Assembly: GCA_964449815.1 (NCBI GenBank)
Contig: CAYVGC010000007.1
Span: 3,948-67,947 of the forward strand
From: an uncultured Bifidobacteriaceae bacterium
Lineage (GTDB): Bacteria > Verrucomicrobiota > Verrucomicrobiia > Limisphaerales > UBA11358
Direction of reading: 5' to 3'
Length of the DNA stretch: 64,000 bases
Below, one piece after another: positions 2,741-59,678 of the stretch (positions within the stretch are counted from its first letter, which is position 1; each line of letters opens with the position of its first letter). The translations under genes were made by a program, and so were the position numbers. The notes below the pieces were generated by a model. It was given only the letters and a program-made list of their open reading frames with translations, was not told the DNA's origin and searched no databases.

Positions 2741-4210
2741 CTACGGTCCGCCGTTGTGGCAGTCAATGCAGCTCGGATTGTCGTCCAGCTCGCCGCCGGG
2801 GTGGATGAACTTCTGACCGGCCGGCGCGAGCTTGTTGAGATCGGCTCCGGCTCCCTGCGCGAGAATGGTGTGACAGGTGTTGCAGTCGTTGGCCTTGATG
2901 GTCGTCTTGCGATCCTCGGTCTTGTGCTGGCCGTCGTGACAGCGGAAACAGCCGGGCCAGATCATGTGGCCGACATTATCTGGGTAGCTGGCCCAGCTCG
3001 CCTTCATTTCGGGAAAGAAATAGTCGGCATAAATCTGCTGAATGGTGGCGGTGGTGGTCTGGACGCGCGGGTCGTTCGGATACTTCGCGGCGAGCGCGGC
3101 GGCGATGCCGTCCTTCGCTTCATTGTCGGTCTGGTATGGCCGGGTCAGGACATACACGGCATTGGTCTTGATCCACGGGATCGTGGGATCAATCTTGCCC
3201 AGCGCCATCTGCTGGTTGACGGCTTTCTCCGGTGAGAGATAGCGGTGCGACGGCCGGTTGTGACAGTCCATGCAGTCCATCGTGCGGATTTCCATCCGGG
3301 TCACGTCGTTGGTGAAATTTTTGGTCTTGAACACGGTGATTTTGCCCTGCGCATCGGTCACGCGCACCCAGGGGATTTTCTGGCGCGCATTGTCGGTCGC
3401 GACGTATTCCACTTTGTTGCCGGGCAGATTGTGCCAGTGAATGCCGCCGACCGGGCCTTGGCGCGGATCGCTGCCGCCAATTTTCAGGAGCAGGCGGATC
3501 GAGTAAGGTGAGTTCGACGCATCGCTCTGGAAATAATTGAACGTGCGGTCGAGGTTGCCGACGAACGACTGCGGCCAGTGACATTCCTCGCACGTCTCGC
3601 GTGCCGGGCGAAGGTTTTTGATCGGCGTCGGAATCGGGCGCGGATATTTGTTGAACGCCACGGCGTAAAGCTGGTAGGAACCGGATATTTTGGACTTCAC
3701 AAACCACGACACGCCCTGGCCGACATGACATTCCACGCAGGCCACGCGCGCGTGCGGGCCGAGGTCGTGCGTGGTTTTCTCCGGCTTCATTACCTTGTGG
3801 CACGTCTCGCCACAAAACGTCACAGACTCGGTAAAGTTAAACGCGTTGTAGGAACCGATGGCCGAGAGCAGCAGAAACACCACGCTGCCCGTGATGAACG
3901 TCACCAGCACCCGGCGGTCGTGCGCATCGTTCAAATCAATCTTCAGTGACGCCGGCCCGACGCCGTGCGCCCGGCGACGCCGCTCCCGCCAGGCCCCGGC
4001 AAAAGCCAGTCCGATGCCGCCGATCAAAAAGACCGGCACCACGATGTAGGTCAAAATGCTGACGTAGGGATTGGCAAATTTGGACAGCGCGTCCAGCACA
4101 AACAGCAGCAGGAAGGAAAAGAGCGCGCCGAGACCCACCACCATGCCGACAAAACTGATCCAGTTGCGGAACACGGATGGGGATTTGCAGGCGGCAGCTT
4201 CAGGATTCAT
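2741..4210 (-). CDS. Membrane-anchored multiheme cytochrome c, NapC/NirT-like N-terminal domain
   Basis: Three N-terminal hydrophobic helices, CGETCH and six CxxCH motifs (CVECH, CEECH, CMDCH, CFRCH, CNTCH, CIDCH). Start placed at MNPEAA (4210). Confidence 0.9.
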   Translation of the reverse strand: MNPEAAACKSPSVFRNWISFVGMVVGLGALFSFLLLFVLDALSKFANPYVSILTYIVVPVFLIGGIGLAFAGAWRERRRRAHGVGPASLKIDLNDAHDRRVLVTFITGSVVFLLLSAIGSYNAFNFTESVTFCGETCHKVMKPEKTTHDLGPHARVACVECHVGQGVSWFVKSKISGSYQLYAVAFNKYPRPIPTPIKNLRPARETCEECHWPQSFVGNLDRTFNYFQSDASNSPYSIRLLLKIGGSDPRQGPVGGIHWHNLPGNKVEYVATDNARQKIPWVRVTDAQGKITVFKTKNFTNDVTRMEIRTMDCMDCHNRPSHRYLSPEKAVNQQMALGKIDPTIPWIKTNAVYVLTRPYQTDNEAKDGIAAALAAKYPNDPRVQTTTATIQQIYADYFFPEMKASWASYPDNVGHMIWPGCFRCHDGQHKTEDRKTTIKANDCNTCHTILAQGAGADLNKLAPAGQKFIHPGGELDDNPSCIDCHNGGP

Positions 4211-4313: not shown

Positions 4314-4643
4314 TTATTTCTTCAAACCGCGAACATAGGCCACGAGCGTCTTCACTTCATCATCGGACAAAGTGTCGAACGGCTTCATCAATGTTTTGTC
4401 TTCCGGAGATTTCAAACCTTCCTTGATGGCCTTCGTGGCGGCGTCATCCTTCATGTCGGCCTGCACCTTGGCGTCGGTGAAATCTTTGCAGCCAAGTTTC
4501 TGGCCCATCTTGGTGTCGCCTTTGCCTTCGGCCCCATGGCATTTCGCGCAGAGGTTGTCCCAATTCTCCTTGGCATCCGCCGCTTTCGCAGACAGGGCCG
4601 CAGCAAGGCCAAACAGCGTGACTAACAGAATAATTTTTTTCAT
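4314..4643 (-). CDS. Periplasmic monoheme cytochrome c
   Basis: Signal peptide MKKIILLVTLFGLAAALSAKA, CAKCH motif and a distal Met in MKPF. Confidence 0.9.
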   Translation of the reverse strand: MKKIILLVTLFGLAAALSAKAADAKENWDNLCAKCHGAEGKGDTKMGQKLGCKDFTDAKVQADMKDDAATKAIKEGLKSPEDKTLMKPFDTLSDDEVKTLVAYVRGLKK

Positions 4644-4821
4644 CGTAGTATGTCGGTTGATATTCAGGTTGCCGATGCACAGCATCGCGTTCAAGGAGAT
4701 TATTGCCCACAAAACAGAATTCAACCAGCCATTTTTTGACTAAGGGTTGACATTTTTTGATAAGCCGAACTGCCGATCAGCCTTCACGGTCCTCAAAAAA
4801 CTCTGATTCCATCACCAAAAT

Positions 4822-4986
4822 ATGGAACCAAAGTCGAACCCGTCGCCGGGTGAAATAAATGTTTTTTGTGCGTGCCGCCACTTCATCGGCGTTTCTGTGG
4901 CCGAAATCATCGTCAAAATCCGGGGATTGACCGACATCAACATCCAGAGCGAAATCCGGCGACGGCGCTTGACCGCTGTTCGCTAA
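4822..4986 (+). CDS. Candidate 54-aa small protein (below the ORF-track cutoff)
   Basis: Translated by hand: MEPKSNPSPGEINVFCACRHFIGVSVAEIIVKIRGLTDINIQSEIRRRRLTAVR. Second half has many C-ending codons. Confidence 0.4.
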   Translation: MEPKSNPSPGEINVFCACRHFIGVSVAEIIVKIRGLTDINIQSEIRRRRLTAVR

Positions 4987-5010: not shown

Positions 5011-5943
5011 TCAGTCCCTGGCACCGCTTGTTTTTCCGGCGGTCAAAACTTCGTTTGTGCTGCCGCGACGGTAGCCCTGCAAATCCAGCGTGACGTGCGC
5101 GTAGCCGATCTGTTTCAACGCGCCGGCGATTCTGTCCGCCACGCCGTCCGCCAGAAATTTGTGCATTTCCGCCGGGCCGACCTCGATGCGCGCCAGATGC
5201 GAAACCGTTGCGGATTGCGGATTGCGGATTGCGGACTGTTTCGCGGCACCGGCTGCCGGATTTTCAGTCTGCAATCCCCAATCGCCGCTCCGCAATTCAT
5301 GGTGCCGCACGCGCACATCATGAAAACCGAGATCGCGCAGCGCATATTCCGCCAGCTCGATCATCCGCAGCTTGGCTGGCGTCACCGTTTCGCCGTAAGG
5401 CACGCGCGAACTCAAACACGCCATCTGCGGCTTGTCCGCCGTCGGCAGGCCGAGCTGCGCGGACAGCTCGCGGATTTCCGCCTTCGTCAAACCGACTTCC
5501 TTGAGCGGCGCGCGCACCTGGAATTCCGCCGCCGCCTGCGCGCCCGGACGGAAATCGCCGATGTCGCTGGCGTTTTCGCCGTAGGCAATCACCGCAAAAT
5601 TTTCCGCCCGTGCCAGCGGCGTCAGTCCCTCGAACAGCTCGTGCTTGCAGAAATAACAGCGGTTCGCCGGGTTGGTGGTGTAATTCGCGTTGTCAAATTC
5701 CCGCGTGCGAAGGATGCGCACGGAAAACGAGAATTTCGCCGCGATGTCGAGCGCCTCCTGCAGTTCGCGGCGCGGCAGACTCGGCGAATCGGCAATCGCC
5801 GCCAGCGCGCGTTCGCCCAGCACCTCGTGCGCGACGTGCGCGAGAAACACCGAGTCCACGCCGCCGGAATAGGCCACCAGACACGAGCCGCAGCTTTTCA
5901 GCAGCGCCCGTAATTTTTCCAGTTTGTTGTTTGCTTCGCTCAT
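5011..5943 (-). CDS. larE: ATP-dependent sacrificial sulfur transferase LarE, with in-frame palindromic insertion
   Basis: PP-loop VAYSGGVDS, NRCYFCK, DFRPG, ACLSSR and VTLDL.GYR.GS; adjacent to larC and larB. Confidence 0.93.
   Translation of the reverse strand: MSEANNKLEKLRALLKSCGSCLVAYSGGVDSVFLAHVAHEVLGERALAAIADSPSLPRRELQEALDIAAKFSFSVRILRTREFDNANYTTNPANRCYFCKHELFEGLTPLARAENFAVIAYGENASDIGDFRPGAQAAAEFQVRAPLKEVGLTKAEIRELSAQLGLPTADKPQMACLSSRVPYGETVTPAKLRMIELAEYALRDLGFHDVRVRHHELRSGDWGLQTENPAAGAAKQSAIRNPQSATVSHLARIEVGPAEMHKFLADGVADRIAGALKQIGYAHVTLDLQGYRRGSTNEVLTAGKTSGARD
5208..5295. repeat. Heptamer-based inverted repeat inside larE
   Basis: (ttgcgga)x4 at 5208-5235. Arm 5265-5295 matches the reverse complement of 5208-5238 at 25/31 positions, with a 26-nt loop. 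Confidence 0.9.
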
Positions 5944-7256
5944 CGCTTCAAATGCTTCGCGGCCTGAACCGCCGCCTCGTAAATCGTTTTCACCGGCACT
6001 TTTTTCTGCGCCGCCAGTTTTCTGGCCGGCTCGAATTCGGGCGCGGACTGAATCACCTTACCACCAAGCCGGCCAATTTTCACGGTCACTTTGCCGAAAG
6101 CGGTTTTCACTTCGGCAAATTCCCGGCGCAGCTTGCGGCGCTCCGCGAAGGTTTTCCGCACGCCGAACGCGGTGGTTTCGCGCAAAATCAATTCGCAGAA
6201 TTTGTCCGCGTCGGCGTCCGCGCACAAAACCGTGAGCAGCACGCTGGGCCGGTTTTTTTTCATCTGGATCGGCGTGTGAAACACGTCCAGCGCGCCGGCG
6301 GCCAGGGCCGTTTCGACAAAGCTGCCGAGAATTTCCCCGGTGCAATCGTCCAGATTCGTCTCCAGCACGGCAATCCGGTCGGTTTCCCAATCAAGGCCGG
6401 TTGCAGGTTGAGGCGCGCCACCGACCTTGGACTTTGGACTTTGGACTTTGGACTGGGTTCCCAGCACCGTCCGCAGCACATTCGGCCGCGTGACATTTTC
6501 CCGCGTGCCGAGGCCAAAGCCGATTTTTTCGGCGACCAGATTTTCCATTGCGCCGAAGCTTTCGACGAATTCCGCCAGCAGCGCCGCGCCGGTGGGCGTG
6601 ACGAGTTCGTGCGGTTCGTCGCATTGCGTGAGACTGATGCCGCGCGCGCCGAGAATCGCCAGCGTGGCCGGTGCGGGCACGGGAAACCGTCCATGCGCGC
6701 AATCAATCCAGCCGGTGCCTTCGATTATCGGCGAGGCGAACACGCGCGGTTTGCCGAGCAGTTCCAGCACGATGGCCGCGCCGACGATGTCCACGATGGA
6801 ATCCACCGCGCCGACTTCGTGGAAATGGACTTCGTTTGGCGGCAGCCCGTGGATTTTCCCCTCGGCTTCCGCGATGCGCGCGAACACGGCGATGGATTTC
6901 TGCTTCACCCAGGCCGACAGCTTGCTGCGCGAAATGAGCTGTTTGATCTCCGAAAAATTGCGCTGGTCGTCATGCGCATGATCCTGGCGGTGTTCGTGCG
7001 GATGCCCGTGGCCGTGGTGATGATGACCGTGATCATCCGCGTGTTCGTGGTGATGCGCATCCGTGAGATGGACGTCAAACTTCACCCCGGCGATGGCGGA
7101 TTTTTGCCGGCGCGAAACATGGAGATGGTAGCCGTCAAGCTTGAGCTTCTTCAACTCGCGTTCGAGTTTGGCGGCATCCACGCCGAGATCCAGCAGCGCG
7201 CCGATGAACATGTCGCCGGCGATGCCGCTGAAAATGTCGAGGTAAAGCGTTTTCAT
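5940..7256 (-). CDS. larC: Nickel pincer cofactor nickel insertase LarC
   Basis: DIFSGIAGDMFIGALLD, His-rich segment, HFHEVGAVDSIVDI, TPTGAALL, ETNLDD and MKKNRP. Confidence 0.95.
   Translation of the reverse strand: MKTLYLDIFSGIAGDMFIGALLDLGVDAAKLERELKKLKLDGYHLHVSRRQKSAIAGVKFDVHLTDAHHHEHADDHGHHHHGHGHPHEHRQDHAHDDQRNFSEIKQLISRSKLSAWVKQKSIAVFARIAEAEGKIHGLPPNEVHFHEVGAVDSIVDIVGAAIVLELLGKPRVFASPIIEGTGWIDCAHGRFPVPAPATLAILGARGISLTQCDEPHELVTPTGAALLAEFVESFGAMENLVAEKIGFGLGTRENVTRPNVLRTVLGTQSKVQSPKSKVGGAPQPATGLDWETDRIAVLETNLDDCTGEILGSFVETALAAGALDVFHTPIQMKKNRPSVLLTVLCADADADKFCELILRETTAFGVRKTFAERRKLRREFAEVKTAFGKVTVKIGRLGGKVIQSAPEFEPARKLAAQKKVPVKTIYEAAVQAAKHLKR
6426..6453. repeat. Heptamer tandem array inside larC
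   Basis: cttggac(tttggac)x3, translated as QSKVQSPKSKV. Confidence 0.9.
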
Positions 7257-10992: not shown

Positions 10993-11134
10993 AGTGGTTT
11001 TGCAGAGGTTTTGATAAATATATGCAGGGAGGGTGAAGACGTAAGGTGGCGCGTGATACAAACTATTTGGTGGCCGACTGCAAGAATTCCCCGAAACCGG
11101 ACTTTGCGTGTTGAACCCCTGAACCGGCGCAGAG

Positions 11135-11237
11135 GTAGCGCTGCCGTCCCCGGCTGCGGGTGCTGACGGCGTCTCGCTGCCAGTTCCATCGCCGGGCGAG
11201 ACGCCCGGCCAACCCGCCGGCGGGACGCCTGCGCTAC
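11135..11237. repeat. Second GTAG...CTAC REP-like element
   Basis: gtagcgctgccgtccccggctgc ... gcgggacgcctgcgctac, with internal ggcgtctcgc/gcgagacgcc inverted repeat. Confidence 0.65.
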
Positions 11238-11328: not shown

Positions 11329-11688
11329 CTACATCAACACCCGATAAAACCACGCGGGCGCAACCATGCCTGCCGGATCAAGAAATTGATATGGACTCAC
11401 CAGCAGATTGGAAAAAGTTTGCAGCGGCATCCAGTTGGTGCCGGCCAAATCCGGGCTGTATTGCACCATGAAATTGTTGTTCAACATCCCGTTCAAGTTC
11501 AGCAGCGGGTAACGCGCCGTCAATTGCAAGGCCAGCGACGGCGGCACCAGCACCACCAGCAACCTTGCAGCGTCTTCCCGCATACTTGCAGAACATTCCC
11601 GCAAACCTGCAACGTCTTCCCGCAAACCTGCAACGTCTTCCCGCATACCTGTAGAACGCTCTCGCAAACCTGCAGGGTCTTCCCGCAT
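11329..11688 (-). pseudogene. Orphan C-terminal sorting-like module fused to repeat-derived heptads; probable remnant of a secreted protein
   Basis: C-terminal LNLNGMLNNNFMVQYSPDLAGTNW...FLDP...WFYRVLM. The N-terminal part is translated 21-bp repeat, upstream units carry in-frame TAG, and there is no signal peptide. Confidence 0.55.
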
Positions 11689-11880
11689 ACCTGCAGAACG
11701 CTCCCGCTAACCTGCGGGGCCTTCCCGCTTACCTGCAGAACGCTCCCGCTAACCTGCGGGGTCTTCCCGCTTACCTGCAGAACGCTCCCGCTAACCTGCG
11801 GAGCCTTCCCGCTAACTTGCAGAACGCTCCCGCTAACCTGCGGGGTCTTCCCGTAGGTTTGCGGGAAGGCTCTGCAAGCT
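11563..11880. repeat. 21-bp minisatellite, 14 units plus one terminal inverted copy
   Basis: Units acctgcagaacgctcccgcta and acctgcggggtcttcccgctt alternate over 11563-11856. 11857-11880 is a reverse-complement copy. Confidence 0.95.
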
Positions 11881-26999: not shown

Positions 27000-27845
27000 T
27001 CAAGTTTGCGTCTCGTCAATAAATGTTTCTTTGATGCGTTCCAAAATCACGTCGGCCAGCAGCGGTTCGGTGCCGACGGACGGTGAATACCAGAAAAGCT
27101 TGCCGTGTTTCTCCGTCGGATTGCGCCAGGTCGGCCGGCCGGCGGCGTGACGTTCTTTTACGATGCGTTCCGGTTCGCCGAGCAGCACCGGAATATCCTC
27201 GACCACATGCAGCCCGTCGCTGATGAAAAACGGCACGACGACGCAGTAGTTTGTCTGCGCCAGCAAATGGCAGATCTCGATGCGCGGTTCTTCTTCCATG
27301 AAAACCGCGCGGACCGCCGCGTAAATTTTTTGCGCGCGGATCATTTCCGCCTGCCGTTCAATGGCCCTGCGAGAATTTTTATTTTTCTCAGTGCCGTGGC
27401 CGGCGATGAAGAGCGTGGTTTCCGCCGGCTTCGGCGCACGAGGGAATGGAAACTTCTGAGCGATCCCGGCAGCGCGCGATAAAATCACTTTCGTCATGCT
27501 GTCGTGCGTGCCGGCCGGGCGGCAGTAAAACAGTGACGAGTGACGAGTGACGAGTGACAGGTTATCCGGAAAACTGAAGCCGAGTCCCTTTGGAATGATT
27601 TCCGTGCTGAAATAGCCTTCGCTGATGAACAGCGGCGCGATGAAGATTCTGGGCGCGGAGATTTCCGCGAGAATTTTTTTGATCTGCGGCTCCTGTTTCC
27701 AGAAGGCCTCGCGCACCTCGCGGAAAATTTTCCGGCGGCGCAGTTCCGCCGCGTGCTGGTAAACCGGCGCGGCGGACTGGTCGTTCAACTCCGTGCCGTG
27801 GCCGAGGACGACGAGCACGGAACCGGAAAATTTCTCACGGTTCAC
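27000..27845 (-). CDS. cbiX: CbiX/SirB-family tetrapyrrole chelatase (two-domain)
   Basis: VLGHGT, PLFISEGYF, second domain AGHGT, PFFISDGLHV.EDIP. Confidence 0.8.
   Translation of the reverse strand: MNREKFSGSVLVVLGHGTELNDQSAAPVYQHAAELRRRKIFREVREAFWKQEPQIKKILAEISAPRIFIAPLFISEGYFSTEIIPKGLGFSFPDNLSLVTRHSSLFYCRPAGTHDSMTKVILSRAAGIAQKFPFPRAPKPAETTLFIAGHGTEKNKNSRRAIERQAEMIRAQKIYAAVRAVFMEEEPRIEICHLLAQTNYCVVVPFFISDGLHVVEDIPVLLGEPERIVKERHAAGRPTWRNPTEKHGKLFWYSPSVGTEPLLADVILERIKETFIDETQT
27532..27559. repeat. Heptamer array inside cbiX
   Basis: (agtgacg)x3 agtgaca, translated as SLVTRHSSL. Confidence 0.9.
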
Positions 27846-33469: not shown

Positions 33470-34648
33470 ATGAAAAATCCGCTTGTCCATCGCGGGACGG
33501 GGGCATTCACGCTGGTGGAATTACTGACGGTCATCGCCATCATCGGCATTCTGGCGGCGCTGCTGATGCCGGCGTTGGAGCAGGCCAAGGCCCGGGCCAG
33601 ACGGATTCAATGTGTGGGCAACCAGAAGGAAATCGGCCTCGCCCTCCATTTGTTTGCCAACGACCACAGCGGAAAATTCCCGACGCAAGTCTCCACCAAC
33701 GACGGCGGTTCGCTGGAATTCGTCACCGCCGGGTATCACATCCACGGGCCGTTTTATTTTTCCTTTCAACATTTCCGCCCGCTCGCCGGCACCCTTGGCA
33801 CGCCAAAACTCCTCGCTTGTCCGGCAGATCTGGAACGCTGGGCGGGGACAAATTTCATCCAGTTTAACAACCGGAACTTGAGTTATGAAATCGGGCTCAT
33901 CACGGATGCCGGCAACCCCGGAGTGATTCTCGCCGCTGATCGGAACGCCCCCAGCCATCCCGACCCTGCCTACAATAGTCCGGACATCAGGTTGATACCC
34001 TGCCCGCCCGGCTTAAATCATTGGGGACTGAATTTACATGAAAGAAAAGGCAATTTGCTTTTCTCGGATGGCCATGTGGAAGAATCTTACGACACAATCA
34101 TCGCGTCGGAAGAAACCACGTCCGAAGATCTTGTTTATCCAGAGGTGAAGGCGTCCACCGGATACTCGCCGCCGGGCGGCCCCGGCGGAATGCCCTCCCA
34201 AAACAATCCACTGATCCCGTCGGCGCAAGTGGCGCAAACCCCGTCGCTGCCAGTAATCGTCCGTCAGGGATTTTCCAACCAGGCCAGCGCTGCAAACGCC
34301 AGCAGCCCCGCATCAGGCAATTCAACCTTCTCAAACCAGCCCGCCAGTCCGACGATGGTTGATTTCAATGCCCAGGACCACATGAGAAAATTTTTCACGG
34401 CTAGTCCGGTAACTACCCATGCAACGGTGCCGCAGACGAATCGTGCCATCGTGGCTGTTCAAGTCGCCACCAACATCGTTCCGGCAACGAACGATGCTGC
34501 GGGCATGTCTGATGCAAACCGCCGGCTGGTAAAGATTTTCCAAAAGGTGTTTGGCTGGGGTTATCTGCTGCTGCTGCTGTTTCTGCTGTGGCTCTGGTTC
34601 AAATTGCGGCGGAAATGGCGGCGGTGGCGGCAGCGGCAAAAGTGTTGA
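33470..34648 (+). CDS. Prepilin/H-X9-DG protein with Ser/Pro/Thr-rich linker and C-terminal membrane anchor
   Basis: [24 protein letters not shown] and terminal [29 protein letters not shown]. Confidence 0.85.
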
Positions 34649-45845: not shown

Positions 45846-47270
<1,425 letters not shown>

Positions 47271-55187: not shown

Positions 55188-56114
55188 TCACGGCACGACG
55201 ATCGTCCCCGTCTCGCTCGGCGTGGCCTGGCCGGCGTCGTTGGCGGCGATGATGTAAAGTTTCAGCGTCTTGCCGCTGGGCTGGCCGGTCAGCGTGGCGT
55301 CGCTGTCGCTGACGGTGGCGATGTTGATGGGGATGGCATCCGCGCCGTCAATTTGTTTGAACACGCGGTAGCGCATGGCGCGCGGCGGCGTGTTCCAATG
55401 CAGCACCACAATACCCGCCGGGCCGGCGGTCAGCACCAGGCCATCCACCGAATCGGGCAGATTGGTCGCGCCCGGTTCATTCAGGCCGAAGGCCAGCCAC
55501 AGCGGGTCGGTGTCATCAAGCAGGTGGCCGAGTTCGGCAATCAGGCCGCTCAGGCGGTTGCGCAACGCCTGTTCGGCGGCCTCGCGCAGCACCTTTTTCT
55601 TGCCGGCATCCGTGTTGCCGTCCGCCGCGGCGACGCGGGCGGTGGACAGCGCGGTGAACAGCACGCCCGCCTGCGCAGAGGTGACCACGAGCTTGGGCGT
55701 GTTGACTTCGTAGCCGGGGTTGGCGGCGAAAAAGTTCTTGAGCGACAGCAGCAGCGCCTGGCGCTTGAACTGCGTGACGGGCACGGCGGTGGAATGGTCG
55801 GAAAAGCCGGTGGCAACCCAGGCCTGGCTCCAGGTTTCGCCGAGATTGCTGGCCAGCACGCGGCGGGCGGAACTGATGAAGGCCTTGCCGTTGGAATCGG
55901 CCACGGTCACGGCGGTGCTGAAACCGGTCTTGGCGCTCAAGGCGTCCTGGTAGTTCTCCTGCGCGGTGACAGCGGCGTCCAGGTCGGCGCGCACGTCCGC
56001 TTCCAGGTTTTGCTTGAGGCCGATGGCGGTCTGGTGGTTGTGGCAGCCGTCGGCCACGTCTTCGCCGAGGGTGAAGAGGTCGTTCAAGGGTTTGGGCAGT
56101 TGATTTGAGGCCAT
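55188..56114 (-). CDS. Helical N-domain plus C-terminal FN3-domain protein, no signal peptide
   Basis: Start MASNQLPKPL. C-terminal LHWNTPPRAMRYRVF...LKLYIIAANDAGQATPS is FN3-like. Confidence 0.8.
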   Translation of the reverse strand: MASNQLPKPLNDLFTLGEDVADGCHNHQTAIGLKQNLEADVRADLDAAVTAQENYQDALSAKTGFSTAVTVADSNGKAFISSARRVLASNLGETWSQAWVATGFSDHSTAVPVTQFKRQALLLSLKNFFAANPGYEVNTPKLVVTSAQAGVLFTALSTARVAAADGNTDAGKKKVLREAAEQALRNRLSGLIAELGHLLDDTDPLWLAFGLNEPGATNLPDSVDGLVLTAGPAGIVVLHWNTPPRAMRYRVFKQIDGADAIPINIATVSDSDATLTGQPSGKTLKLYIIAANDAGQATPSETGTIVVP

Positions 56115-56122
56115 AGTTTTTA

Positions 56123-56157
56123 GGAGCTGGGTGTTGGGAGCCAGGAGCCAGGAGCTT
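56123..56157. repeat. Heptamer array just upstream of the FN3 gene start
   Basis: ggagctg ggtgttg ggagcca ggagcca ggagctt. Confidence 0.75.
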
Positions 56158-56228
56158 GGAAAATGAGGGAAAAGCTGCATCCCACAGGAAATGAAGCATT
56201 TGCGAACCTATGCGCGTCCGCCCCGGGC

Positions 56229-56528
56229 AAAACGACGGTCGGTTTGGCAGGCGCGGGCGTGCGGCAGGCGGGAAAAGCGCTTTTATGGGCTGGGGCGGAC
56301 CCGCCCTGGCCGCGACGACCGTCGTTTTGGGCGGCGCGAGCCGGCGGCGGGCGATAAAAGCGCTTTTGCCGGCCGGGGCGGAACTTCCCCGGTTAAAACG
56401 ACGGTCGTTTTGGCAGGCGCGGGCCTGCGGCGGGTGAAAAAAGCGCTTTTGCCGGCTCGGCGCGGCCCCGCCGGGGTGAAACGACCGTCGTGATGGGGTG
56501 GGGCGGACCGGCCTGGGGTATAAACGTT
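56229..56528. repeat. Array of two alternating palindromes with 83-bp period
   Basis: Core acgac(c/g)gtcg starts at 56232, 56315, 56398 and 56481; aaaagcgctttt starts at 56273, 56356 and 56439. Confidence 0.9.
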
Positions 56529-56696
56529 GCGGCTGCGGTGGCACTTTTGCGCAGCTACGGCGAAACCATTGAACGTTTGACAACTTTCGCATGGCTTGCG
56601 GGTTCAATTAGCCGATAAAGGCTGAAGGCTGTCAATTTAATAGCCCCAAATACCAATCGGCACCCAGAGAATCACAAGAAAGGGTGAGGCTCCGGC

Positions 56697-57779
56697 CTAG
56701 CCGCACTGCGCGCGCTGGCGCAGCGCGTGATCCACGAGGACGAGCGCGGTCATCGCCTCGACCATCGGCACGGCGCGCGGCAGCACGCACGGGTCGTGCC
56801 GGCCCCGGCCCTTGAGCGTGGCGTTGTGCAAAGCCTCGTCCACCGTGTCCTGCTCGTGCATGACGGTGGCGACGGGCTTGAACGCGGTGCGGAAGAAAAT
56901 GGTTTCGCCGTTGGAGATGCCGCCCTGGATGCCGCCGGAACGGTTGGTGGTGGTGAAAACTTTCCCGCCCTTGGCGCGGAAGGCGTCGTTGTGCTCGCGG
57001 CCCGTCAGCAAAATCCCCGCGAACCCGTCGCCGCTCTCAAAACCTTTGCACGCGGGCAGGCTCAACATCGCCTTGGCCAGATCGGCTTCCAGCTTGTCGA
57101 ACACCGGTTCGCCCCAGCCGGCGGGCACGCCGCGCGCAACGCCTTCCACGATGCCGCCGACGGTGTTGCCGTAGGTGCGCATCTTTTCGATGAGCCGGAT
57201 CATCTTTGCCGCGGCCTTCGCGTCGGGGCAGCGGACGATGCTGGCTTCCACGTCCTTGAATTTCACCTTTTCAGGATCAACCGCGCCGATGATTTTCTGC
57301 ACCTGCTTGACGTAGGCGAGAATTTCCACGCCGAATTTCTCGCGGAGAATTTTTTTTGCAATCGCGCCGGCGGCGACGCGGCCAATGGTCTCGCGGGCGC
57401 TGGCGCGTCCCCCGCCCTGCCAGGCGCGGATGCCGTATTTGGCGAAGTAGGTGTAGTCGGCGTGCGAGGGACGGAACTTGTCCTTCATCTCGTTGTAGGC
57501 CTCGGAGCGCGCGTCCTCGTTTTTCACCCAGAGGCAGATTGGCGTGCCGAGCGTGAGGCCGGTGGTGGAGATGCCGGACAAGATTTGGACCGTGTCGGAC
57601 TCCTGGCGCGGGGTGACGATTTTGGACTGGCCGGGCCGGCGGCGGTCCAAGTCCGGCTGGAGGTCCGCCTCGGAAAGCCGCAGCCGCGGCGGGCAGCCGT
57701 CCACCACCACGCCCACGCCGCCGCCGTGCGATTCGCCCCACGTCGAGATGCGGAACAATTGTCCAAAACAGCTTGCCAT
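56697..57779 (-). CDS. aroC: Chorismate synthase
   Basis: [40 protein letters not shown] and GRHDPC. Confidence 0.97.
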
Positions 57780-58136
57780 GGGGCGAGTGTGCGAAAAATC
57801 TGGCACCCGGTCAAATGCGGTCTCTTCCCGCCCAGGCCGGTTCGCAGGCGTGAAGCGGCGCGGTTGTCAGACCAGATGAAATCGTCACCCCGCCCGGCCG
57901 CGCCACTTGCATGACCCCCGGCCGGCGGATGACAAAGGGTGGCCGCCGGCCGGGTGAGGGCAAAACTTCCAAGCAGCCTTGACGCGCGCCGATAAAAGCG
58001 TAGGTTCACTGGCAATGAACCCGACGCTGAAAGTGATTCTTTCCGAACCGCGCGGCGTCAAAGAGCAAACCCCGTCAATTAAAAGATCATCATCGGCCCG
58101 GTTTCAACTGAACACACCTGGAAGGAGAACACAAAT

Positions 58137-58994: not shown

Positions 58995-59450
58995 TCATTT
59001 TCTGGAACGACCATGCAATGCCTTGTGAATCCGGCGCAGCAGGCGTTTTTCATTGTTCCGTGAAAGCTCGTGTTCCCAAATCCGCAGCACCTGCCAATTG
59101 GCCCGGCGCAAGACGCGGTTCACCAGCCGGTCACGGGCGAGATTGCGGGCGAATTTGCGTTTCCAGAACGCGCGGTTGCCGGCGGGCTGCGTGCCGTGTT
59201 TAGGACAGCCGTGCCAGAAACAGCCGTCCACGAAGATTGCCGTGCGCGATTTGTGGAAAACAAAATCCGGCCTCACTTTGAATTTCCGCTTTTCGCCTTC
59301 CACTTCCCGAATTTCAAAATGCCTCCTCCATCCGGTGATTTTGTTCCGACGCAGCAATTTCACCAGCGCGATTTCCGTGGCCTGGTTCCCGCGCGAGCGG
59401 ATGCGCGACATCACCTCCGAACGCTTTGCCTTGGTGAAAACGTCTGACAT
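58995..59450 (-). CDS. vsr: Very-short-patch-repair (Vsr-like) endonuclease
   Basis: SDVFT..KRSEVMSRIR, PDFVF, IFVDGCFWHGCP and RIWEHE. Confidence 0.92.
   Translation of the reverse strand: MSDVFTKAKRSEVMSRIRSRGNQATEIALVKLLRRNKITGWRRHFEIREVEGEKRKFKVRPDFVFHKSRTAIFVDGCFWHGCPKHGTQPAGNRAFWKRKFARNLARDRLVNRVLRRANWQVLRIWEHELSRNNEKRLLRRIHKALHGRSRK
59279..59320. repeat. Degenerate heptamer array inside vsr
   Basis: tgaattt ccgcttt tcgcctt ccacttc ccgaatt tcaaaat, translated as FEIREVEGEKRKFK. Confidence 0.55.
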
Positions 59451-59678
59451 CTTGGACACAGATTAACACGGATGGGCACGAATTTTGAACCACAAACCGG
59501 GACGCAAAGGCCGAAAGCGGCAGGATAAAAACGGACCACCGGGGGACTGGCGGGATGCGTTCGCGGCCAACACCTGTTTTTTATTTGCATTCGAAGCCAT
59601 AAGGAGCATGATCACATTGCCTGCGGAAAAAGTTTTATTCCGCACGCAACTTAACCATAAAAGAGAAAGATGAAACAT

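Follow-up and report, generated by a model that had tools for sequence, protein, structure and literature searches.

Upstream of a gene for a 308-aa protein ending in an FN3 domain, the 64,000-nucleotide stretch of DNA analysed here (the window) carries a tandem array of 83-bp units, and homologues of this gene in unrelated gene neighborhoods are accompanied by arrays of the same period whose unit sequences are often unrelated. As far as sequence comparison goes, nothing but the array and the gene moves as a unit, and the spacing of the array is conserved far better than its sequence. The restricted period, the freedom from indels, the high predicted curvature and the lack of a consistent sense-strand G.U signature favor reading the array as a regulatory or architectural element, helically phased and working at the level of DNA on the expression of the adjacent gene, a view that we hold with about even confidence.

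The array sits in a 582-bp gap with aroC on one side and the gene for the 308-aa protein on the other. Both genes are on the minus strand, and since the latter occupies positions 55188-56114 on that strand, the array lies 5' of it, 104-383 bp before its ATG. The features of the locus are as follows:

55188 to 56114, minus strand: gene for the acidic 308-aa protein, an elongated helical bundle at the N-terminus followed by FN3 at the C-terminus
56115 to 56174, minus strand: G-depleted leader with a CATTTTCC motif and a GCTCCTG heptamer repeat
56176 to 56203, minus strand: candidate proximal promoter-like bipartite element, GCAAAT-N16-GATGCA
56218 to 56497, minus strand (the orientation of the downstream gene): tandem array, 3.3 units of 83 bp, from TRF and a register search
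56225 to 56236, minus strand: one instance of the oriented core motif GTCGTTTYRCCC
56229 to 56245, unstranded: palindrome A copy 1, AAAACGACGGTCGGTTT, imperfect, nearest the gene
56273 to 56284, unstranded: palindrome B copy 1, AAAAGCGCTTTT, exact
56312 to 56328, unstranded: palindrome A copy 2, CGACGACCGTCGTTTTG, left arm degraded
56356 to 56367, unstranded: palindrome B copy 2, exact
56395 to 56411, unstranded: palindrome A copy 3, AAAACGACGGTCGTTTT, the sole perfect copy
56439 to 56450, unstranded: palindrome B copy 3, exact
56478 to 56494, unstranded: palindrome A copy 4, AAACGACCGTCGTGATG, right arm degraded, at the distal end of the array
56606 to 56635, minus strand: candidate distal sigma70-like promoter, TTGACA-N18-CTAATT
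56697 to 57806, minus strand: aroC (chorismate synthase, by Pfam), the upstream neighbor, outside the cassette

The genes flanking the array were assigned through Pfam to aroC, a TPR protein, a WXXGXW protein, Vsr, an FGE-sulfatase and an aminotransferase. None of the flanking genes scanned (selected ORFs between 48.8 and 59.5 kb) specifies a Cas, Rep or ParA/ParB protein, which agrees with the initial annotation in so far as it had noted no cas or rep gene nearby. The gene for the Vsr very-short-patch repair endonuclease (58995-59459, minus strand) implies a cytosine-5 methyltransferase somewhere in the genome.

Each 83-bp unit of the window array is composed of two half-units of about 41.5 bp. 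TRF delineates the array at 56218-56472 with a period of 83, 3.1 copies, 75% matches and 0% indels, an ungapped register search recovers three 136-nt copies at 56196, 56279 and 56362 that are separated by steps of 83 and 83 bp and share 69-73% identity, and the top autocorrelation lag is likewise 83 (z = 6.1). Palindrome A (AAACGACSGTCGTTT) occurs with two or fewer mismatches at 56230, 56313, 56396 and 56479, against a chance expectation of 0.17 across the entire window, and just one further weak match is present. Palindrome B (AAAAGCGCTTTT) is represented by three exact copies and none elsewhere in the window, the chance expectation with up to one mismatch being 0.38. The centers of the two palindromes alternate at 40.5 and 42.5 bp, with a mean of 41.5 bp, and a sub-period of about 20.7 bp is present solely in the form of these alternating, different dyads. 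The spacers between them are not unique but related to one another, with a 75% match overall. Further instances of GTCGTTTYRCCC occur at 56391-56402 (with one mismatch) and 56474-56485; apart from the weak match just mentioned, motifs A, B and GTCGTTTYRCCC were not found in the rest of the 64 kb or in the non-array parts of 66 loci. The array is thus real and its 83-bp step exact, as the initial annotation had it from four copies of A and three of B, and its other descriptive claims (centers alternating every 41.5 bp or so, and spacers that have diverged while remaining related) are borne out by these measurements. The positions that it gave for palindrome B (56273, 56356 and 56439) are exact, whereas those for palindrome A (56232 and its successors) are off by 2-3 nt, although the 83-bp step between them is right.

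The protein encoded downstream is acidic (pI 5.2), and its AlphaFold model (pLDDT 91) displays an elongated bundle of helices, two of which span about 54 residues, followed by a C-terminal FN3 domain. Foldseek searches with the full model return FN3 matches only and confirm this domain, in keeping with the original placement of the array upstream of an FN3 gene, and the helical domain on its own yields no usable homologue in Foldseek (best E-value 0.2). At the sequence level, searches of Pfam, NCBIfam, PADLOC and PDB sequences recover the FN3 domain only, or nothing, and a comparison with PHROGs gives one non-significant match (E = 0.11). The approximately 280 homologues have a common length of 306-308 aa and an identical start position, and the protein represents a conserved family of unknown function that falls outside all curated families. 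Viral contigs yielded no relatives, and a phage origin is for this reason unsupported. The family is widespread in Verrucomicrobiota of peat, soil and freshwater and is entirely uncharacterised. It has 2-3 copies per genome, each with its own array, and its members are likely to be under special control of expression.

The comparison encompassed five loci from an exact-protein look-up and 49 from species-representative genomes, whose FN3-family homologues (36-92% identity) lie in unrelated gene neighborhoods. The hosts are mostly Verrucomicrobiota, chiefly of subdivision 3/Limisphaerales but also Luteolibacter and Chthoniobacter, with a few bins labelled Planctomycetes or Armatimonadetes; the loci are chromosomal, and often there are 2-3 paralogues per genome. 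At nearly every locus with enough upstream DNA there is a tandem array with a period of 41, 42 or 82-84 bp, and annotation pipelines place spurious ORFs on them. Autocorrelation peaks at a lag of 41, 42, 82 or 83 in 36 of the 42 upstream regions; in a comparison with controls, the peak lag was one of {41, 42, 82, 83, 84} in 25 of 26 upstream regions and in 7 of 205 control tiles. When TRF was applied to the window and 368 kb of loci, nearly all periods of 12 bp or more came out at 40-42, 82-84 or 123-126, the exceptions to multiples of 40-42 bp being coding repeats. The roughly 34 independent arrays solely use 41, 42 or 41+42 bp, with no arrays of 39, 43 or 44 bp seen among them. They range from 150 to 450 bp in length, and their position relative to the gene is conserved, in that they end 40-500 bp from the ATG (the one in L029 extends to -42). 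This association spans orders and is still present at a protein identity of about 36%.

Close relatives have in common palindromes A and B, a CACGGCCGTG dyad and the oriented core GTCGTTTYRCCC, which in 20 homologous loci is confined to the arrays and invariably reads in the sense direction of the gene. More distant relatives possess entirely different units with an unrelated consensus and no common motif, and even paralogues within one genome differ in unit sequence. No neighboring gene is conserved across 48 loci, response regulators or two-component pairs being found upstream in a few only, and an identical protein (P0023) recurs in at least three different neighborhoods; it is on these grounds that the array and gene are taken to be the sole traveling companions. 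The idea of a cassette with the FN3 gene and a phasing of four helical turns, both raised at the outset, is supported by the outcome of the check that the initial annotation had itself proposed, in that homologues in unrelated surroundings do have phased arrays with this period (41-42/83 bp).

The unit number of the arrays is polymorphic. When compared between strains, as had been suggested initially, the arrays upstream of the identical P0023 show length differences of exactly 41 bp (in L056) or 83 bp (in L061), and two other records of the window's own locus (L065 and L066) are identical to it, with no variation. A metagenome scan with an 18-base core located 64 places, nine of them within arrays of 41/42/83-bp periodicity. 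The gene follows five of these nine, one is without enough downstream sequence to tell, and L085 and L108 have no gene. In L106 (about 4520-4830) the array and leader are followed by just the first eight codons of the FN3 gene and then by unrelated DNA, so that a decayed cassette is left. The link between array and gene is therefore strong yet not absolute. L085 (about 3037-3300) has a single A-type motif and then a 41-bp array of another kind (TCCCGGAG-N-GACTCCGCAATC), and no FN3 gene follows it.

We propose that the array acts as a DNA-level cis element of the helical-bundle/FN3 gene. With units of about four helix turns (41-42 bp, or 41+42 = 83 bp), the small intrinsic bend or protein contact contributed by each would fall on the same face of the helix and these contributions would sum. 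The outcome might be a tract with strong curvature or a left-handed superhelical path, or else a platform for binding on one side, placed directly upstream of the core promoter and the G-poor leader of the gene. Such a tract could set the transcription of the gene through RNA polymerase, or through a nucleoid or regulatory protein for which shape and phasing count more than sequence. Unequal recombination would gain or lose whole units, thereby tuning the element and homogenising the units within an array, so that sequences would drift apart between loci while the period holds and geometry would be the property under selection. By two twist tables the array units amount to 3.87-4.02 helical turns, with negligible twist compensation between 41- and 42-bp units, and A4/T4 tracts recur in helical phase in the array; a harmonic analysis of A/T periodicity was uninformative. 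Curvature was predicted in silico with a wedge model applied to 166-bp windows. In this model the window array ranks second in curvature among the 166-bp stretches of the 64 kb, with an end-to-end/contour ratio of 0.748 versus a median of 0.966, and in 29 of 33 loci the stretch with the highest curvature of the whole locus begins 110-561 bp upstream of the gene. Since curvature is near-automatic for tandem repeats with a period close to whole turns, and since the prediction depends on the wedge parameters used, these values largely restate the period argument and are no independent test of it, and the model is to be read as indicating the size of the expected effect. The most curved predicted DNA of the 64 kb (ratio 0.627) is at 4640-4860, where an AT-rich intergenic stretch that contains phased A/T tracts and a TTGACA element precedes a small cytochrome-c-like gene. 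Two aspects fit the geometric proposal less well: dyad symmetry and the compensated changes in the arms of some arrays are not predicted by pure geometry, and geometry alone provides no reason for four turns over two or three, except inheritance.

Candidate promoter elements are present on both sides of the array. On the gene-proximal side, the bipartite element, a candidate of uncertain status, has the form GGAAAT/GGAAC-N16-GTTGCA in a few close homologues and is confined to the window, L001, L003 and L019, plus L108 as judged by eye. Viewed as an ECF-like GGAA-N-GTTGCA element downstream of the array, it is limited to these 4-5 close loci and was set aside. Between array and ATG, 20 of 43 loci display a strand-specific CATTTYCC motif (25 CATTTYCC-like motifs on the sense strand vs 3 on the antisense); its position would suit a core promoter or a transcription start on the gene side of the array. 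In 22 of 24 loci, G is scarce in the final 60 nt ahead of the ATG. In the window this leader has no Shine-Dalgarno sequence (56115..56174), and its heptamer reads GGAGCCA x2.7 on the plus strand at 56137-56155. Perfect heptamer repeats of 3-5 copies, with differing units, are scattered over the window (5208-5235, 6423-6454, 27532-27558, 46799-46827, 47134-47167 and 56137-56155), and G-poor leaders with heptamer periodicity (CTAACTC, CCTAAAT, CTTTCAA) precede the ATG of many FN3 homologues. In the Luteolibacter/Akkermansiaceae loci L036, L043, L053 and L054, a segment of about 100 nt running from array to ATG (-110 to -1) is conserved and includes a hairpin, CCCGCCGG-GTAGGAAAA-CCGGCGGG, with an exposed GGA-containing loop. 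On the far side, the candidate distal promoter lies about 135 bp upstream of the array and is aimed at both array and gene. A strict sigma70 scan of the upstream regions recovered nothing consistent, and a promoter/terminator consensus scan of 55-58 kb recovered nothing promoter-like and a single terminator-like site, which lies within the gene. A sigma54 promoter and intrinsic terminators were dismissed by eye, the motifs matching poorly, as was a uORF running through the array, 83 not being divisible by 3.

If the distal candidate is real, the array would be transcribed, and this would count against the DNA-level reading. The structured 5' RNA offered by the initial annotation would then be a leader of about 480 nt, made from a sigma70-type promoter upstream of the array, whose modules (A/U-flanked hairpins and GC hairpins) might stabilise the mRNA or bind an RNA-binding protein controlling translation of the FN3 gene. 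We regard such a leader as unlikely. In its favor, a sense-oriented TTGACA with a -10-like hexamer 16-18 bp downstream points through the array from 90-230 bp upstream of it in the window and in L001, L003, L006, L007, L008, L013, L016, L025 and L036, and the reach of the L029 array leaves scant room for a promoter downstream. However, the TTGACA-N17-TTTAGT/TTTAAT-like form of this element is a property of close relatives only, and over the upstream regions of all loci TTGACA occurs at the frequency expected by chance. The array folds better than shuffled sequence in the sense direction (z = -4.9), but the antisense folds no worse (z = -5.7). Long stems with proper loops and either compensated changes or many G.U pairs are seen in L033, L032 and L017; against these, many dyads are palindromic through the center with a loop size of 0-1, too small for a hairpin in RNA, and several arrays have no significant dyad whatever. 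Mismatches within the dyads speak in neither direction: G.T against A.C is 26 vs 42 in one motif set and 46 vs 26 in the other, conflicting and non-significant results that pool to 72 vs 68, with no consistent sense-strand excess of G.U. The ratio of 18 to 3 in L017 would fit RNA pairing and would equally fit the G/T skew of that strand. The arrays are without strand skew, unlike the G-depleted last 60 nt of the true leader, Rfam 15 gives no match for the window at the gathering score (a permissive scan returning only chance-level ones), and a role in RNA would furnish no ground for an indel-free period of 41, 42 or 41+42 nt. Structured RNA, one of the three mechanisms first put forward, has no positive support but keeps a small probability.

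The palindromes invite another explanation, namely that they serve a dimeric DNA-binding protein as sequence-specific sites of the operator, centromere or iteron type, with either a trans-encoded regulator or the FN3 protein itself binding cooperatively along one face for the autoregulation, partition or replication of a mobile cassette. Palindromes A and B at fixed phase, dyads significant at p < 0.05 in the consensus units of 7 of 23 arrays, the array-bound GTCGTTTYRCCC of 20 loci, an array-then-gene order resembling iterons followed by rep, the occurrence of the cassette in differing contexts and a likeness to sopC (see below) are all in line with such sites. We nevertheless think this quite improbable: a gene for ParA, ParB, Rep or another DNA-binding protein is not conserved in the vicinity, genomes have 2-3 chromosomal copies each, no relatives turned up on viral contigs, and a shared binding sequence is at odds with the differing units of paralogues in one genome, the motifless distant arrays, and the asymmetric decay of half-sites and differences between units within arrays. 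Binding by the FN3 protein, which the initial annotation proposed to test, looks unlikely, since the protein is acidic and without a nucleic-acid-binding fold, its helical domain having no significant structural match. The array might also be a neutral minisatellite that hitch-hikes with the gene, its period kept only by unequal crossing-over of whole units. Polymorphic unit number, homogenisation within and divergence between arrays, the same-family arrays lacking an intact gene (L106, L108 and L085) and a different 21/42/84-bp array at 11561-11853 that has no FN3 gene would agree with this. A neutral repeat is, however, expected to be lost or to drift to other periods, whereas here an array precedes nearly every member of the family across orders, with the period restricted and the position relative to the gene conserved, and we see very little chance of a neutral origin. 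Of the mechanisms listed by the initial annotation, phasing or bending at the DNA level is the one favored, on the four grounds given at the outset.

If the DNA-level reading is correct, the arrays would be a natural regulatory DNA in which helical phasing has been kept over deep evolutionary time while the bases were left free, and a shape-based readout would be directly testable. Variation in unit number could possibly constitute a population-level expression switch. More tentatively, and with the chances tilted against it, the arrays might define a class of cis elements in PVC-group bacteria for which geometry, in the form of the four-turn unit, is the sole conserved property. Its members would be copy-number-tunable curved or superhelical scaffolds, or co-assembly tracks for a protein that reads phasing, controlling one orphan gene family and possibly other genes; element and gene would then amount to a self-contained cassette that relocates within and between genomes.

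We found no published description of such arrays in bacteria in the literature, and they differ in telling ways from the systems that they most resemble. The sopC centromere of the F plasmid consists of 12 repeats of 43 bp in tandem, and SopB binds a 7-bp inverted repeat within each. Like it, the window array comprises tandem direct repeats of about four turns with a dyad per unit (A and B every 83 bp) beside the gene served; unlike it, it is without parA/parB-type genes in the flanks of the window and across the 48 loci, is chromosomal and multicopy, lies upstream of an orphan acidic protein, and has unit sequences that vary by locus and a period of 41-42 rather than 43 bp. The iterons of theta-replicating plasmids are 17-22-bp repeats spaced at about 22 bp next to a rep gene. 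They share with the arrays helically phased direct repeats of variable copy number directly upstream of one linked gene, but the period of 41.5/83 bp is twice as long, and the adjacent protein combines a helical bundle with FN3 and has no Rep-like winged-helix fold or plasmid context. Curved upstream DNA with phased A-tracts, or UP-like activating regions, is exemplified by Escherichia coli rrnB P1 and Clostridium perfringens plc. The window array is comparable in its helically phased A4/T4 tracts, in the net curvature just upstream of the gene that the wedge model predicts in silico, and in the suspected modulation of promoter strength through DNA shape; it departs from them in its complex GC-rich 41-42-bp unit in place of a 10-11-bp A-tract period, in its length of 150-450 bp with variable copy number across loci, and in that distant arrays have no A-tracts at all.

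REP/BIME elements of enterobacteria and BOX elements of pneumococci are also extragenic mosaics with alternating palindromic units in tandem, but those are dispersed in hundreds, mostly after genes and in alternating orientation, whereas the motifs here are confined to arrays, in one orientation, 5' of one gene family. CRISPR arrays too have regularly spaced short palindromes; the "spacers" of the window array are, however, mutual copies (75% match; 69-73% identity between the 136-nt register copies) and not a record of unique sequences, its period is only 41.5 bp, and no cas genes were seen in the flanks scanned. With MIRU/VNTR minisatellites the arrays share intergenic units of 40-100 bp and whole-unit copy-number differences between strains, and the P0023 arrays of L056 and L061 behave as VNTRs in the general sense of a 10-100-bp unit with strain differences in copy number. 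The distinction is that here it is the period, not the sequence, that is conserved across a gene family and across orders.

The window and some related loci harbor additional repeats. A second non-coding array at 11561-11853 has a period of 21/42/84 bp with the unit TTCCCGCWWACCTGCRG...; its helical arithmetic is alike, its sequence is unrelated, no FN3-family gene is near, and it falls outside the most curved predicted regions. Beside it, at 11083-11230, is a 148-bp dispersed repeat without an Rfam match, which recurs in L108 (3841-3988, 98% identical to the window copy) directly after the FN3-type array that lost its gene, and in L024 (about 2043-2151). A 560-bp tile at 33601-34160 has a top autocorrelation lag of 42 (z = 3.1), TRF finding short repeats only. 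Finally, a distant paralogue subfamily (35-37% identity) is associated with 42/84/126/168-bp arrays situated 0.9-2.4 kb upstream with genes intervening: L041 has two (559-920 and 1598-2050), L044 one at 325-640 and L050 one at 1800-2112. One of the intervening genes in L041 specifies an IS200/RAYT-like transposase, and L044 and L050 have XRE-type regulators, accompanied in L050 by a two-component pair.
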